64,000 bases of DNA from a phage, in sequence record PX880103.1. One strand, written 5' to 3'. Positions 1-32,390 of this stretch are shown piece by piece (position 1 is the stretch's first letter; each line of letters starts with the position of its first letter). The notes under the pieces were generated by a model. That model worked only from the letters and a program-made list of their open reading frames with translations. It was not told where the DNA came from and ran no database searches. The translations under genes and the position numbers were made by a program.

Positions 1-639
1 TAACACACCTTCTGGATGAATCTGGCGAGCTTCAGCAGTCATTTTGATTAATTCTTCCTTAAGAAGATCTAATCCTAGATATTCATTACCAGCTCGTGAT
101 AAAAGACGAACATCATCTAATTCATCACCTCTGACTTCAGCAAAGCACCGAGCCCCATCAGCTTTTAACTGGGCAAAGGCTGGAAATTTGATATTCTTAT
201 TAATGCCTTTTTCATCATAAGAACTTGCAAGCATTTGAGGTTGTTCAGGAATTAAACCTGGCCAAACTTTGTTTGCAATAGATACTGAAGCACCACATTC
301 AAGGTCTCGCATCATCACTCGACGCAAAACTTCAACATCATCTTTTTTACCATCGGTGATGTATCCAGTTAATTCCTCAATTGCCGCATTTCCAGTCAAT
401 TTCCGAGTAGCTAACGTGAATTCAATGAAGTCAAGCATATCGGTAAGAGTCAACATTCCAAAACTCTGGGTAGCAATACCAGGTTTAGGCCATTTCTTGA
501 TATAATACTGCAACCCACGAGAATAAGTCAGACGATATACTCGTTTAAGCAATTCATTATCTTTATTCTTTTCAAGAATTGCTTGCTTCTGCTTAGTTGA
601 ACCAATAGATGCTATTTCGTTCAGAATTTTAAGAATCAT
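1..639 (-). CDS. 30: DNA ligase gp30, N-terminal ~213 codons (remainder lies left of the window)
   Basis: Minus-strand ORF with ATG at 639 after AAGGA RBS, running off the left edge; hand translation MILKILNEIASIGST matches the T4 DNA ligase N-terminus as I recall it. Confidence 0.9.
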   Translation of the reverse strand, partial: MILKILNEIASIGSTKQKQAILEKNKDNELLKRVYRLTYSRGLQYYIKKWPKPGIATQSFGMLTLTDMLDFIEFTLATRKLTGNAAIEELTGYITDGKKDDVEVLRRVMMRDLECGASVSIANKVWPGLIPEQPQMLASSYDEKGINKNIKFPAFAQLKADGARCFAEVRGDELDDVRLLSRAGNEYLGLDLLKEELIKMTAEARQIHPEGVL

Positions 640-905
640 TGTTCATCCTTTAGAGTTTGGTTTACAGCTCTATTATAAATCAATTCATCATTAAGCTCAG
701 TCAAAGACCTATGGTACGTGGTTCTAACTTTATTTCCTTGCATCCAATGCTTGACGTAAATGAAACCTTGCTCTACACATTTTTTAAAAATTCGTTCGTC
801 TTTTTGAGCTCGGAATTCTGGATTGCATCTAAAAAATTGATTTACGTGACCATAATCACGTGTAGTATTACCTTCATTTTCATAAATAGTGTGAACGACA
901 AACAT
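636..905 (-). CDS. hypothetical protein (T4 30.1 position)
   Basis: 89-aa ORF; stop overlaps the gene 30 ATG (ATGA coupling). Confidence 0.55.
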   Translation of the reverse strand: MFVVHTIYENEGNTTRDYGHVNQFFRCNPEFRAQKDERIFKKCVEQGFIYVKHWMQGNKVRTTYHRSLTELNDELIYNRAVNQTLKDEQ

Positions 906-1768
906 TAGAATGCTCCTTGGAAAATATTATCACCACTAGTAATTCTATTAAAATACCCTGCGTCGCCAGGCTTAATATAACTCCACGTATGGAATGGATT
1001 CATATGATATAGATGTGTATAATATGGATTATATGGATGTGTATAATATGGATGATATGGATTTAATCCAGGAGTTCTCCATGTAGTATTTTGGCGAAAA
1101 GAATCGTTTTTAACCATCTTCTCAATTACATCTTTTATAGCTTTTTCACTATCAAAACTTTCTTTATTTTCCTTCGGCGAAAAAAGCTTATTTTCTACAT
1201 CATTCCATGTATAAACTCGCTGAGCAGTTTTTGGAATATTGTCACGCTCTCCTCGAGCCATCCAATAAACTGGAACATTTAATATTTCACTCGCATGATC
1301 GCAGTGGTGAGCGAGATCGTCAATATAACAAATTACGTTATATTTCTCTTTTGCCTTTTTGAACAACTCTTCTTTTGAAGAATCATGACCACACATCATT
1401 ACTTCTGAGAAGGCACCAGGAAAAAGAGCATTCAAATTAAATTGACGATTCAACAGAGCGTCAATAGAATCACCCAATGCTGTAACAGCTACAAAATTAT
1501 AATCTTCTTTTAATTTGTTAATTACACACAGGGCATCTTTATATGGAGACAAGTAACGAATAAAATCCGAACGATTGTATTTTTCAATTAACTTGACGCC
1601 AAGTTCTTCATCACAGTTAAAGAGTTTACCAGGAGAAATAAATTTCTCATCCTGGATCATTTTTAAAATATGTTCTAACGGAAGATTATATTTCTGAGCA
1701 AAATAAGGAAGGCCTGATTGCCAGCTTAAACATACTCCATCAATATCAGTTAAAATAGTAGGCTTCAT
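905..1768 (-). CDS. HAD-like hydrolase-family protein with C-terminal Tyr/His/Pro-rich repeat
   Basis: 287-aa ORF; N-terminal LTDIDGV resembles HAD motif I (DxDGx); C-terminus NPYHPYYTHPYNPYYTHLYHMNPFHTW is encoded by a DNA tandem repeat. Confidence 0.6.
   Translation of the reverse strand: MKPTILTDIDGVCLSWQSGLPYFAQKYNLPLEHILKMIQDEKFISPGKLFNCDEELGVKLIEKYNRSDFIRYLSPYKDALCVINKLKEDYNFVAVTALGDSIDALLNRQFNLNALFPGAFSEVMMCGHDSSKEELFKKAKEKYNVICYIDDLAHHCDHASEILNVPVYWMARGERDNIPKTAQRVYTWNDVENKLFSPKENKESFDSEKAIKDVIEKMVKNDSFRQNTTWRTPGLNPYHPYYTHPYNPYYTHLYHMNPFHTWSYIKPGDAGYFNRITSGDNIFQGAF
990..1075. repeat. in-frame tandem repeat (~18-21 nt unit, atgtgtataatatggatt-like) inside the 905..1768 ORF
   Basis: Read directly: repeated atatggat / atgtgtataatatgg units. 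Confidence 0.6.
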
Positions 1769-2229
1769 AAAGAGTCTCTTAATAGGTTTAACACATCAAT
1801 AAATTCAGCTTCGGTTAGTATTGTATCATCTTTTGTTAGACCACTAGCCATGCTGTGCTTCAAAACTTTTCCTTTCGAGGCTTGTAATGCATCACGAAAG
1901 CCCCTGTTTTGGAACGCTGCTTCAAAATATGCATTTGTGTATAATTCTTTCCACGCCGGGGAGTATCTTGAAAACGGAACTCCAAGCCAGAACAACGTGC
2001 CACGATCCTGAGCTCTAGCATAAGACCTTCCAGCTTGTTGGGCGGCAAGCCCGGATAACCCAAATATACGACGTTGCTGTTCAACATTTTTCACCTTACA
2101 CCCTTGGAGGAATCCTTCGAGACCTCCAAATTGAATGCCATCCATAACGAAAGGCCATTGGGCGAAATTACTTAATGCACATGATGGCCATTTAAAATTG
2201 CTTCTTATCTCTAGCTCAGACATTTTCAA
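1765..2229 (-). CDS. NADAR (YbiA-like) domain protein, putative ADP-ribose processing enzyme
   Basis: 154-aa ORF; motif ALSNFAQWPFVMDGIQF...EGFLQGCKV resembles the FSNF..WP..DG...EHYFQA.KF signature of E. coli YbiA as I recall it; size fits. Confidence 0.5.
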   Translation of the reverse strand: MKMSELEIRSNFKWPSCALSNFAQWPFVMDGIQFGGLEGFLQGCKVKNVEQQRRIFGLSGLAAQQAGRSYARAQDRGTLFWLGVPFSRYSPAWKELYTNAYFEAAFQNRGFRDALQASKGKVLKHSMASGLTKDDTILTEAEFIDVLNLLRDSL

Positions 2230-2422
2230 TACTTATAATTTCAACATCAGCCCAATGACCATAGCAAGGAAGACGAAATTCAACTGGCCAGTTAGGGTCC
2301 TTTTCTAATATAATAGACTGAACTTGTGGCTCTTCATATTCATCGGTATACGGACCTTTATACGTTACTTTATATGTGACCTTAATGTACTTAATTCCAA
2401 AAATCTTATTAATTATATTCAT
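2216..2422 (-). CDS. hypothetical protein
   Basis: 68-aa ORF, overlapping stop/start with neighbours. Confidence 0.5.
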   Translation of the reverse strand: MNIINKIFGIKYIKVTYKVTYKGPYTDEYEEPQVQSIILEKDPNWPVEFRLPCYGHWADVEIISIENV

Positions 2423-2616
2423 ACTAATTCCTTTAATCCGTAAATAGGAGATAATTCATCGCCCATACGAAGGTCTTCATTTCCATCTACCCAGGAAACA
2501 ATATAAGCCTCTTTTATTTGAATACCACTCCATTTAAATGGAGGTAGAACCTTAGAAATTAATCCAGGTATACCAACTCCCTTTAATTCAACAGTTTGAC
2601 CTAAAAAGAATTTCAT
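2419..2616 (-). CDS. hypothetical protein
   Basis: 65-aa ORF in translationally coupled chain. Confidence 0.5.
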   Translation of the reverse strand: MKFFLGQTVELKGVGIPGLISKVLPPFKWSGIQIKEAYIVSWVDGNEDLRMGDELSPIYGLKELV

Positions 2617-31610: not shown

Positions 31611-32390
31611 ATGGCAATTGTAGGTGTTCCTGGCTGGATTGGTGAATCTGCCGTGAATGAAACTGGACAACGTTGGATGGATGCTGCGATGAGAGCAGTT
31701 CGTGTTTCAGTTCCTGGTTGGATGAGCTCAATGGCTGGACAATCTAAAGAAATTATTCACACGCTTGGAGCAGACCATAACTTCAATGGTCAATGGTTCC
31801 GAGATAGGTGTTTTGAGGCAGGTAGTACACCTATAGTGTTTAATATTACAGGTGATTTAGTATCATATTCTAAAGATGTTCCTTTATTTTTCATGTATGG
31901 AGATACACCGAATGAATATGTTCAGTTGAATATACACGGCGTAACGATGTATGGACGTGGCGGTAATGGCGGTAGCAATAGTCCTGGCTCAGCTGGAGGT
32001 CATTGTATTCAAAACGATATTGGTGGGAGACTAAGAATTAATAATGGTGGAGCTATTGCAGGCGGCGGTGGCGGCGGTGGCGGCGGTAACAGGGGTAGAC
32101 TATCATTTGGTGGTGGCGGTGGTCGCCCATTCGGTGCTGGCGGGTCTTCCTCTCATATGAGTTCCGGTGCAACTGCTGGCACCATTTCCGCTCCGGGTAA
32201 AGGATCTGTTGGTGAGGGGTCTCTTAGTGCATATACAGGCGGTGCTGGCGGTAACGTTGGTGCTGCTGGAGGAAGATGTAATACTCAAGGTACCGGTACA
32301 GAATATAACGGAGGAGCTGCTGGTTATGCCGTCATAGGGTCCGCTCCAACGTGGATAAATGTTGGAGCAATATATGGTCCAAGAGTATAA
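31611..32390 (+). CDS. 38: gp38 receptor-binding adhesin (T2/S16 type, glycine-rich motifs)
   Basis: 259 aa; conserved N-terminus then poly-Gly blocks ([23 protein letters not shown]) separated by variable segments. Confidence 0.85.

Follow-up and report, generated by a model that had tools for sequence, protein, structure and literature searches.

Gene 30.2 of a T4-like phage encodes a predicted HAD-type phosphatase with a disordered tail and a length-variable 24-bp coding repeat

In mammals, the 5'(3')-deoxyribonucleotidases of the cytosol (cdN/NT5C) and of mitochondria (mdN/NT5M) combine a HAD fold, a C1 cap made of helices, the motif DxDGV, and HAD motifs II–IV, as does the cdN-like bacterial protein 3bwv. 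HAD phosphatases have a motif I of the form DxDx(T/V), a Ser/Thr in motif II, a Lys/Arg in motif III, and an acidic pair in motif IV, and they transfer phosphoryl groups with Mg2+ by way of an aspartyl-phosphate intermediate. The second Asp of motif I separates phosphotransferases from dehalogenases within the HAD superfamily. The fold, the cap, and the motifs are all predicted in gp30.2, the product of a gene in the 64,000-nt stretch of phage record PX880103.1 analysed here (the window). The core of gp30.2 is similar in size to cdN and mdN, i.e., about 195 aa, and an aromatic residue is found 8 positions past the nucleophile in both cdN (Phe) and gp30.2 (W16). In contrast, whole-domain identity to cdN and mdN is only about 15–20%, gp30.2 is confined to T4-like phages, and it carries a C-terminal extension of ~90 residues, predicted to comprise a helix and a disordered repeat tail, which cdN and mdN lack. 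Another described HAD, the 3'-phosphatase domain of T4 Pnkp, is capless and acts on polynucleotide ends, whereas gp30.2 has a large predicted cap, resembles the small-molecule phosphatases, and has no kinase domain. The phage HADs named 5' nucleotidase in BFVD and GenBank have a predicted fold like that of gp30.2 and are also accessory genes of large phages. They differ from it in sequence (13–24% identity) and in lacking the tail, and their labels have been transferred by similarity. Some 30.2 records are already labelled 5' nucleotidase.

The reading frame at 905..1768 (-) is a genuine ORF and is orthologous to gene 30.2 of T4. It matches phrog_420 (E value 4e-89), the gene carries the label 30.2 in the records of T2 and RB32, and a database search with the locus matched 681 T4-like phage records. 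The gene order ligase (30)-30.1-30.2-30.3 is conserved at this locus; the features discussed below are collected in Table 1. Gene 30.2 is an accessory gene, specific to T4-like phages and non-essential, for an enzyme whose activity is predicted. Among 185,579 bacterial species genomes just 9 matches to gp30.2 were obtained, mostly on contigs of 90–180 kb, with two on much shorter contigs and one on a contig of 723 kb. Many of these bacterial matches look like co-binned T4-like phages, and their operon context is uninformative. A literature search for gp30.2 or 30.2 returned page numbers and table values and no study of the protein, and biochemical data for its homologs were likewise not found. 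The HAD label itself is not new, since the databases already have a HAD annotation for this protein.

Table 1. Features of gene 30.2 and its immediate neighbours, in coordinates of the window
Feature	Position	Strand	Basis
Gene 30.2 ortholog, CDS	905..1768	(-)	287 aa + stop, ORF list
Neighbour gene 30.3 = AdfN, NADAR DNA ADP-ribosylglycohydrolase	1765..2229	(-)	Pfam PF08010, E=3e-69
Neighbour gene 30.1 (DUF3045)	636..905	(-)	Pfam PF11243, E=3e-64
ATGA overlap, 30.3 (adfN) stop / 30.2 start	1765..1768	(-)	Read from sequence
30.2 stop / 30.1 start TAATG overlap (903..907) and 30.1 Shine-Dalgarno	903..918	(-)	Sequence
HAD catalytic core and C1 cap (predicted), residues 1-195	1184..1768	(-)	
HAD motif I, D8-I-D10-G-V12 (D8 predicted nucleophile, D10 predicted acid/base)	1733..1747	(-)	Alignment
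Helical C1 cap (predicted), residues 16-86, conserved aromatics W16, F43, Y64	1511..1723	(-)	AF2, alignment
HAD motif II threonine T96	1481..1483	(-)	At least 90% of homologs
HAD motif III lysine K132	1373..1375	(-)	Invariant in alignment
HAD motif IV D150-D151 (predicted Mg2+ ligands)	1316..1321	(-)	At least 90% of homologs
Predicted linker helix, residues 207-223, joins core and tail	1100..1150	(-)	AF2 secondary structure
Predicted disordered Tyr/His/Pro/Asn-rich tail, residues 225-287	908..1096	(-)	pLDDT <50
24-bp tandem repeat, 2.5 copies, octapeptide PY(N/H)PYYTH, indel hot spot	1004..1062	.	TRF

The AF2 model of gp30.2 contains a confident HAD core (pLDDT >90) with the Rossmannoid alpha/beta fold of the superfamily and a helical C1 cap. 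Motif I with its second Asp and the residues of motifs II–IV are all present. The residues D8, D10, G11, and K132 are invariant across 47 homologs, whose identity ranges down to 34%, while T96, D150, and D151 are conserved in at least 90% of them. In the model, the residues of motifs II, III, and IV each fall at a predicted beta-strand end or helix start. Fold searches with this model matched HAD enzymes exclusively, and no other fold; the BFVD matches were phage HADs, either uncharacterised or named by similarity, at target TM-scores of 0.6–0.8. Purifying selection on the core is very strong (pN/pS 0.023). The first-pass annotation had suggested a HAD phosphatase or nucleotidase from the N-terminal motif, and the suggestion is supported by the conserved catalytic aspartates and motifs II–IV, by the predicted fold, and by NT5C as the nearest family. 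From sequence and model, gp30.2 is thus predicted to be a HAD-type phosphatase, most like the deoxyribonucleotidases.

The relation to these enzymes emerged from profile and fold methods. Searches of Pfam, NCBIfam (E ≤1), and PDB sequences with the single protein gave no usable match, and the window protein stays below the gathering score that Pfam sets for NT5C (PF06941). Among the homologs, NT5C was the Pfam family most often matched (12 of 47; best E value 1.2e-4), always below threshold. When the gp30.2 family profile was compared with all PDB sequences, the sole sensible alignment was to mouse cdN (PDB: 2jao; E value 0.037), the other chain listed being an amidase (E value 0.85). Alignment by hhalign to the N-terminal half of mouse cdN (residues 4–104) gave a probability of 90.6%, an E value of 1.3e-6, and 31% identity. 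In this alignment W16, F43, and Y64 of gp30.2 correspond to a Phe, a Phe, and a Tyr of cdN, which we take to be the aromatic residues that sandwich the base in the structure papers on cdN and mdN. In the NT5C family such residues are borne by a four-helix C1 cap. Foldseek also matched cdN and mdN, at target TM-scores of 0.64–0.71. By sequence, therefore, the NT5C 5'(3')-deoxyribonucleotidases appear to be the closest family to gp30.2, below the Pfam threshold.

Residues 1–195 would thus form a Mg2+-dependent HAD phosphomonoesterase in which the nucleophile would be Asp8, the acid/base Asp10, the phosphate-binding residues Thr96 and Lys132, and the metal ligands Asp150 and Asp151. The helical C1 cap is predicted to shut over the active site, and because the site is capped a small phosphoester would be the most likely substrate. 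Most plausibly this would be a (deoxy)nucleoside monophosphate, as it is for cdN and mdN.

After the core, the chain is predicted to continue through the linker helix into a disordered tail that is rich in aromatic residues and proline (Y 14%, P 11%, H 8%) and some 63 residues long. The tail holds a 30-aa stretch with at least 50% Y/H/P/W/F, unmatched elsewhere in the window in any frame. At the protein level, the motifs W-x-T-P-G and G-x-G-I-E-Y-L-x-N-R/Q-P-T are conserved within it in phages of Escherichia, Klebsiella, and Citrobacter. We also considered the tail as a mobile module common to other proteins and rejected this, since searching 5.8 billion clusters with the tail alone recovered just two gp30.2 fragments. 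The tail might tether the protein flexibly or serve for docking.

Tandem Repeats Finder located the repeat in this tail with a period of 24, 2.5 copies, 91% matches, and a score of 104. A second repeat search found two copies of 24 nt that are 92% identical and contain nested sub-repeats of 9 and 15 nt. On the coding strand the two full units, CCATATTATACACATCCATATAAT and CCATATTATACACATCTATATCAT, are identical at 22 of 24 bases, encode PYYTHPYN and PYYTHLYH, and are preceded by a partial unit. The resulting peptide, NPYHPYYTHPYNPYYTHLY, comprises residues 236–254 and is encoded at 1007..1063. Only one other array in the whole window, a 27-nt GGC repeat, reached a Tandem Repeats Finder score of at least 50, and that of 30.2 is the strongest tandem repeat present; the 24-bp repeat exceeds chance. 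The first-pass annotation had described a repeat-encoded tail occupying the last ~30 residues. The repeat stands, but its placement does not, as it lies 34–52 residues from the C-terminus within the ~63-residue disordered tail. Its two units and degenerate third are set between the W-x-T-P-G motif and the C-terminal motif.

Two other readings of the repeat DNA were set aside. An antisense ORF at 994..1086 (+), with 30 aa and 'DVYNMD' repeats, is a mere reverse complement of the repeat. A promoter driving 30.1 or ligase was considered because of the TATAAT-like words in the repeat, and was rejected. Sigma-70-like sites in 500..2500 showed no excess over shuffles (12 compared with 8.8 +/- 3.0), the tail contains only one weak site (9/12), and a scan for terminators found none.

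Related phages differ in the number of PY(N/H)PYYTH units within 30.2 genes that are otherwise collinear: T2 and UFV06 carry a single unit, AV121 carries two, as does the window, and BYEP01 carries three. The T4 tail allele is a degenerate single unit. The 246-nt form with two units occurs in about 50 records and the 270-nt form in one, and length classes of +24 and -24 nt are present in the database spans. A spread sample contained nine length classes, from 219 to 274 nt, and 40 of 41 differences were multiples of 3; further in-frame indels occur at the repeat site in natural isolates. The tail frame is disrupted in KMB42, by a 55-nt duplication, and in AV119/AV120. The earlier expectation that the in-frame repeat could expand or contract is therefore borne out, because natural isolates differ in units. 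Repeat number varies and the catalytic aspartates align, so neither of the findings named beforehand as speaking against the first-pass annotation, an invariant repeat and missing aspartates, was obtained.

Coding VNTRs, such as those of bacterial contingency loci and repeat-variable surface proteins, are head-to-tail arrays with a unit length that is a multiple of three. The array in 30.2 resembles them in both respects, as well as in the whole-unit differences between close isolates and in the position of the repeat within a disordered segment, so that length changes would leave the protein folded. Unlike contingency loci, it has a very low copy number and no on/off switching was seen; its two out-of-frame records arose by events other than unit change. 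Moreover gp30.2 is a predicted cytoplasmic phage enzyme and not a surface antigen. The allele patterns suggest slippage at the 24-bp repeat; whole units would be gained or lost by replication slippage or by unequal recombination between direct repeats. Length variants would be tolerated provided that the reading frame is kept, which implies a weakly constrained spacer length and something downstream worth keeping, either the C-terminal motif or termination beside the 30.1 start. The repeat polymorphism appears to be undescribed in the searchable literature. Taken as a whole, the reading of this gene as a 30.2 ortholog encoding a HAD phosphomonoesterase, with a disordered tail that carries a slippage-variable repeat, is in our judgement probable.

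It is less easy to say what the tail is for. About half of the gp30.2 family lacks it and its frame is disrupted in some records, so the tail may be functionless, i.e., a neutral, repeat-prone segment in which the frame is kept only for termination beside the 30.1 start and hence for efficient translation of 30.1. The predicted disorder, the natural truncations, and the result of the tail-only search, in which the tail was common to no other protein family, are consistent with this. So is the organisation of the 30.2/30.1 junction, where the final 30.2 codons contain both the TAATG overlap and the Shine-Dalgarno of 30.1 (AAGGAG, 913..918) and synonymous divergence is depressed over the last 10 codons (pS 0.055). 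On the other hand, the short tail motifs are conserved across genera and residues 196–232 have a pN/pS of 0.21. The 30.1 gene also has a strong Shine-Dalgarno of its own, so translational coupling to 30.2 would not be obligatory. We regard a functionless tail as unlikely.

Alternatively, the repeat could be an adaptive, contingency-like hypervariable region, diversified by selection through contact with a host or defence protein. The many length classes and mosaic alleles among very close relatives would fit such a role, as would an extremely conserved core beside a tail that is not, and tail peptide repeats of independent origin in three genera. However, no phenotype is tied to any allele, just 1–3 units have been seen with the 3-unit form in a single record, and disordered tails commonly drift through indels without selection. 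The truncation of the tail in two records and its absence from half of the family also argue against this, as does the lack of an effect of T4 30.2 in the reference, DarTG1, and LB versus M9 sheets of the HIDEN-SEQ data described below. Diversifying selection on the tail is accordingly a decidedly doubtful explanation.

A more speculative reading combines enzyme and tail. In it, gp30.2 would act in counter-defence or in sanitising the nucleotide pool, as a nucleotidase removing a toxic or signalling NMP made by the host, perhaps by analogy with the clearing of nucleotide analogues by cdN and mdN, and the fast-evolving, repeat-prone aromatic tail would be an arms-race docking interface. The docking target might be the phage replication/dNTP-synthesis complex or a host target, and slippage of the 24-bp unit would tune the reach of the tail. 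This would explain strong purifying selection without a laboratory phenotype, as well as the independent tail repeats in three phage genera; we consider it improbable.

The position of 30.2 next to ligase raises the question of whether gp30.2 might act as a 3'-phosphatase on DNA ends and ready nicks for sealing by the neighbouring DNA ligase, a heal-and-seal pair comparable to RNA ligase and T4 Pnkp with its HAD phosphatase domain. DNA ligase lies within 4 kb at 77 of 83 30.2-homolog loci (not de-replicated), and this proximity extends from Escherichia to Shewanella, Acinetobacter, and Aeromonas-size phages. In four of five distant contexts that were inspected individually, ligase follows 30.2 immediately or is separated from it by one small gene; in the fifth it lies upstream, with two small genes intervening. 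A weak PHROG match to polynucleotide kinase (E value 0.0011) points the same way. Gene order in T4-like phages is largely inherited, though, so adjacency to ligase is weak evidence for a common function. Moreover, gp30.2 is predicted to have a ~70-residue helical C1 cap homologous to that of cdN, while to our knowledge the HADs acting on polymers (Pnkp, CTD phosphatases, MDP-1) have no cap. T4 already encodes Pnkp, and ligase is essential whereas 30.2 is fully dispensable. A role in nick preparation is thus very unlikely.

The dispensability of 30.2 is documented by HIDEN-SEQ transposon data, which were obtained in T4 rather than in the window phage and comprise sheets for reference essentiality, DarTG1, and LB versus M9. 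In the reference, 30.2 received insertions at 72 of 72 TA sites, and insertions were neutral in LB and M9 (bioRxiv 10.1101/2025.11.20.689424). Under DarTG1, 30.2 had a log2FC of -0.12 (p=0.61, q=1, 71 TA sites), while insertions in 30.3 were lost (log2FC -7.25, q=0) (bioRxiv 10.1101/2025.11.20.689424). The DarTG1 sheet was recognised from the sheet order and this 30.3 signal. The 30.3 product is AdfN, a characterised anti-DarTG1 ADP-ribosylglycohydrolase that is fully effective only during T-even infection, for which an extra T-even protein has been suggested as needed (PMC11825919). The first-pass annotation noted an ATGA coupling of the two genes, which is indeed present, and suggested that 30.2 and the NADAR-like gene may form a functional pair. 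A NADAR ORF was found within 4 kb at only 38 of the 83 loci (not de-replicated), so that more than half of those sampled have none nearby. In Klebsiella, Shewanella, and other T4-like phages, 30.2 sits beside ligase without 30.3. Gene 30.2 therefore shows neither the requirement under DarTG1 nor the consistent NADAR co-occurrence expected of an AdfN anti-DarTG1 module. That gp30.2 is a functional partner of AdfN, for example by processing ADP-ribose-derived products or as the missing T-even factor, is hence extremely improbable and for DarTG1 already largely refuted, despite the adjacency of 30.2 and 30.3 in Tequatrovirus, RB69-like, and Acinetobacter phages, the suggested extra protein, and the Alt ADP-ribosyltransferase that is also in the neighbourhood; start/stop overlaps are the norm throughout this block of genes, where 30.2 also overlaps 30.1, and the ATGA overlap is typical of tight T4 gene packing.

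Gene 30.2 is part of the 'dark matter' of genes still uncharacterised in the best-studied phage. A very broad array of T4-like phages keeps it beside DNA ligase, yet it has no phenotype in the three T4 sheets. As gp30.2 is not AdfN's missing cofactor, one obvious candidate is removed from the open DarTG question. For biochemistry, the starting points are a capped, cdN-like predicted HAD phosphatase that is not an AdfN cofactor and a natural spacer of variable length. The view of phage biology is unchanged unless the substrate of gp30.2 or a partner of its tail proves to be defence-related, and the repeat polymorphism is a neat detail of an otherwise ordinary accessory gene. The repeat could nonetheless be of some small use in typing Tequatrovirus isolates, and it is also a spot where short-read assemblies may err.

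gp30.2, the product of the 30.2 ortholog, is most likely a capped phosphatase of the HAD type, both dispensable and strongly conserved, with a small, nucleotide-like substrate. Attached to it, in the most likely picture, is a disordered tail rich in aromatic residues, whose 24-bp coding minisatellite ranges from one to three units to little effect. The protein is an uncharacterised addition to a known kind of enzyme, and its structural polymorphism is neat but minor. The window is a segment of a T4-like (Tequatrovirus) genome, and 681 phage records match the 1.7-kb stretch around 30.2, the best being Escherichia phage AV121 (97.9%). The gene belongs to a conserved gene block that runs from DNA ligase (30) through 30.1, 30.2, and 30.3 to 30.4, and the ATGA coupling to the NADAR-like gene (30.3) recorded in the first-pass annotation is indeed present. 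Inside 30.3, in a different frame, there is also a 75-aa ATG ORF (1860..2087, minus strand), annotated in T4 and T2 as 30.3', 'internal translation in a different reading frame within gene 30.3'.

Features of the 30.2 locus, in window coordinates
Feature	Position	Strand	Remarks
30.2 ORF	905..1768	-	287 aa; T2 and RB32 records label it 30.2
Upstream ORF (30.3)	1765..2229	-	Pfam Phage_30_3, E=3e-69
Downstream ORF (30.1)	636..905	-	Pfam DUF3045, E=3e-64
ATGA stop/start overlap, 30.3/30.2	1765..1768	-	read straight off the sequence
TAATG overlap, 30.2/30.1	903..907	-	read straight off the sequence
30.1 Shine-Dalgarno AAGGAG	913..918	-	within the final 30.2 codons
Tandem repeat	1004..1062		Tandem Repeats Finder (TRF): period 24, 2.5 copies, 91% matches, score 104

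Used singly as a query, the 30.2 protein had zero matches in Pfam, NCBIfam or PDB sequences, and it matches phrog_420 ('unknown function'; E value 4e-89). The database search returned 100 homologs of 176-347 aa, all from T4-like phages or metagenomes, which have in common a conserved core of ~195 residues and a C-terminal extension that is highly variable or missing. Motif conservation was scored on 47 aligned homologs with identities as low as 34%; D8, D10, G11, and K132 are invariant and T96, D150, and D151 are conserved in at least 90%. D8/D10/G11, T96, K132, and D150/D151 make up HAD motifs I-IV. The second aspartate of motif I is a mark of HAD phosphotransferases, as opposed to dehalogenases, and the retention of the catalytic aspartates supports the initial reading of the protein as a HAD phosphatase or nucleotidase. 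The fold assignment has precedents, since gp30.2 already goes under 'HAD-like hydrolase' or '5' nucleotidase' in some database records.

The best-supported neighbours of the family within the HAD proteins are the 5'(3')-deoxyribonucleotidases. Fold comparison retrieved the structures of the mammalian cytosolic (cdN) and mitochondrial (mdN) enzymes with target TM-scores of 0.64-0.71, and the family profile, when searched against all PDB sequences, found mouse cdN (E value 0.037), the sole other chain listed being an amidase (E value 0.85) whose alignment is without meaning. The Pfam family matching most members is NT5C (12 of the 47 homologs), with hits that stay below threshold (best E value 1.2e-4). 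With hhalign, the family aligns to cdN residues 4-104, a stretch that takes in both motif I and motif II as well as the cap (90.6% probability, 31% identity), and the conserved W16, F43, and Y64 align with cdN aromatic residues, which in the cdN and mdN structures are described as stacking on the base. The pN/pS of the core among 15 Tequatrovirus alleles is 0.023; this is clearly a functional protein.

Occurrence outside phages is essentially nil, with nine matches in 185,579 species genomes, mostly on phage-sized contigs. These 'bacterial' matches (L107, on a 178-kb contig from an assembly of Flagellimonas marina, and loci L108-L115) come from assemblies and MAGs, most of them on contigs of 90-180 kb, two on much shorter ones, and one on a contig of 723 kb. 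Many have the look of T4-like phage genomes that were assembled or binned together with bacteria. In one homolog from a Logan contig (P0013, 302 aa), a gp30.1 (DUF3045) domain is joined in frame to a tail-less 30.2 core whose motif I reads DIDDV in place of DIDGV; the fusion may be genuine or may stem from a sequencing error. The 90% identity cluster of gp30.2 (P0001) also takes in 152-aa gp30.3/AdfN sequences, presumably joined via a read-through gene call over the ATGA overlap; this clustering artefact can distort member counts.

A helix is predicted at residues 207-223; beyond it, pLDDT values fall below 50 over residues 225-287, a segment rich in Y (14%), P (11%), N (10%), and H (8%), with charged residues scarce. 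Family lengths are bimodal (~200-220 aa tail-less, ~260-300 aa tailed), and in the enterobacterial-type phages the tails are rich in proline and aromatic residues. Sub-groups have in common the motifs W-x-T-P-G, G-x-G-I-E-Y-(L/W)-x-N-(R/Q)-P-T, LRAYY, and LLNKVxNDS. At residues 227-229 (1081..1089, minus strand), just ahead of W-x-T-P-G, glutamine replaces a conserved tryptophan in the window phage and AV121 (FRQNTTW), the remaining sampled Tequatrovirus alleles reading F(R/P)WNTTW. Two tails contain internal peptide repeats of their own, MTPCDP(P/V)YP twice in Erwinia phage Cronus and PHFFDP twice in Citrobacter phage CkP1, and these independent repeats indicate that repeat formation in the tail is recurrent across genera. 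A search with the tail alone recovered only gp30.2 fragments, which rules out a module borne by other proteins. The pN/pS of residues 196-232 is 0.21, and the last ten codons diverge little at synonymous sites (pS 0.055), which fits the embedded ribosome-binding site of 30.1. The tail may be kept in frame for the sake of a useful C-terminal motif or of termination beside the 30.1 start.

The repeat in the window is real and unusual there. Two 24-nt copies (92% identity), with 9/15-nt sub-repeats nested inside, form the coding-strand units CCATATTATACACATCCATATAAT and CCATATTATACACATCTATATCAT, encoding PYYTHPYN and PYYTHLYH. The repeat region is the sole stretch in any frame of the window with at least 50% Y/H/P/W/F over 30 residues, and only one other array, much weaker, has a TRF score of at least 50 (GGCGGCGGT three times at 32061..32087, score 54). 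The first-pass annotation was right as to the coordinates, the peptide, and the in-frame nature of the array, but not in placing it within the last ~30 residues, since it sits inside a longer tail, 34-52 residues before the C-terminus. Promoter or terminator signals in the repeat were not above chance.

For the tail alignment, the locus was taken from viral contigs and another 12 phage records. The octapeptide PY(N/H)PYYTH is present three times in BYEP01 (295 aa), twice in the window and AV121 (287 aa), and once in T2 and UFV06 (280 aa), while T4 has a shorter degenerate version, NPYNPYHPYQTHPFQTW (278 aa). Copy number thus varies among related phages, and these whole-unit differences support the proposal of a slippage-prone in-frame repeat; judging by the pattern of alleles, units would be gained or lost by slippage or by unequal recombination between direct repeats. 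Deletions and duplications via direct repeats are classically known in T4. Nearby in-frame indels include a 6-nt duplication at a short direct repeat (SG versus SGSG), 6 nt inserted at the ATCCATTCC direct repeat in T-01, and 3-nt differences, and the repeat flanks are mosaics, with differing combinations of segments (WSYIKPGDAGYFNR... versus WNYIKPGGIEYLYNRPT...). Among 482 matching records (the 'spread' sample), the 246-nt tail segment falls into nine length classes of 219-274 nt, and 40 of 41 length differences over the full span are multiples of three. With BYEP01 as query, the 246-nt (two-unit) form was found in ~50 records and the 270-nt form in BYEP01 alone. Frame breaks also occur: a 55-nt tandem duplication in Escherichia phage KMB42 yields a 253-aa product, and AV120 has deletions of ~14 and ~10 nt in the array, together one 24-nt unit, with a TAA between, annotated as a 241-aa ORF and a 32-aa remnant; AV119, of equal span, likewise has two deletions that sum to one unit with a stop in between (241 aa). 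These may be real variants or assembly errors, the AV120 array being a likely spot for short-read mis-assembly. No description of this polymorphism turned up in the searchable literature.

The gene 30.3 product is AdfN, a NADAR DNA ADP-ribosylglycohydrolase by which T-even phages overcome DarTG1; its full action is seen only in T-even infection, suggesting an additional T-even protein, and the RB69 allele is frameshifted (PMC11825919). The copy in the window looks full length. This suggested need made gp30.2 an attractive candidate for the helper, and a functional pair had been proposed from the coupling. The results from T4 transposon sequencing (HIDEN-SEQ) argue against both: under DarTG1, in a data sheet recognised by sheet order and the 30.3 signal, insertions in 30.3 are depleted (log2FC -7.25, q=0) while those in 30.2 are neutral (log2FC -0.12, p=0.61, q=1), and 30.2 is non-essential (insertions at 72 of 72 TA sites) and without effect in LB versus M9 (log2FC -0.10, q=1; bioRxiv 10.1101/2025.11.20.689424). 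Co-occurrence agrees, as within 4 kb of 83 loci with a 30.2 homolog (not de-replicated) a NADAR ORF is found at only 38, gp30.1 at 29, and DNA ligase at 77. The ligase is the constant neighbour in distant T4-like phages (Klebsiella, Shewanella, Acinetobacter, and others), and because T4-like gene order is mostly inherited, we take this adjacency to mean that 30.2 is an ancient accessory gene close to the core set, not that the two genes share a function. A counter-defence role for the enzyme and its fast-evolving tail is quite improbable. T4 30.4, just upstream of adfN, shows moderate depletion of insertions under DarTG1 (log2FC -1.79, q=0.014; bioRxiv 10.1101/2025.11.20.689424), which probably reflects polarity on adfN and not a role of 30.4.
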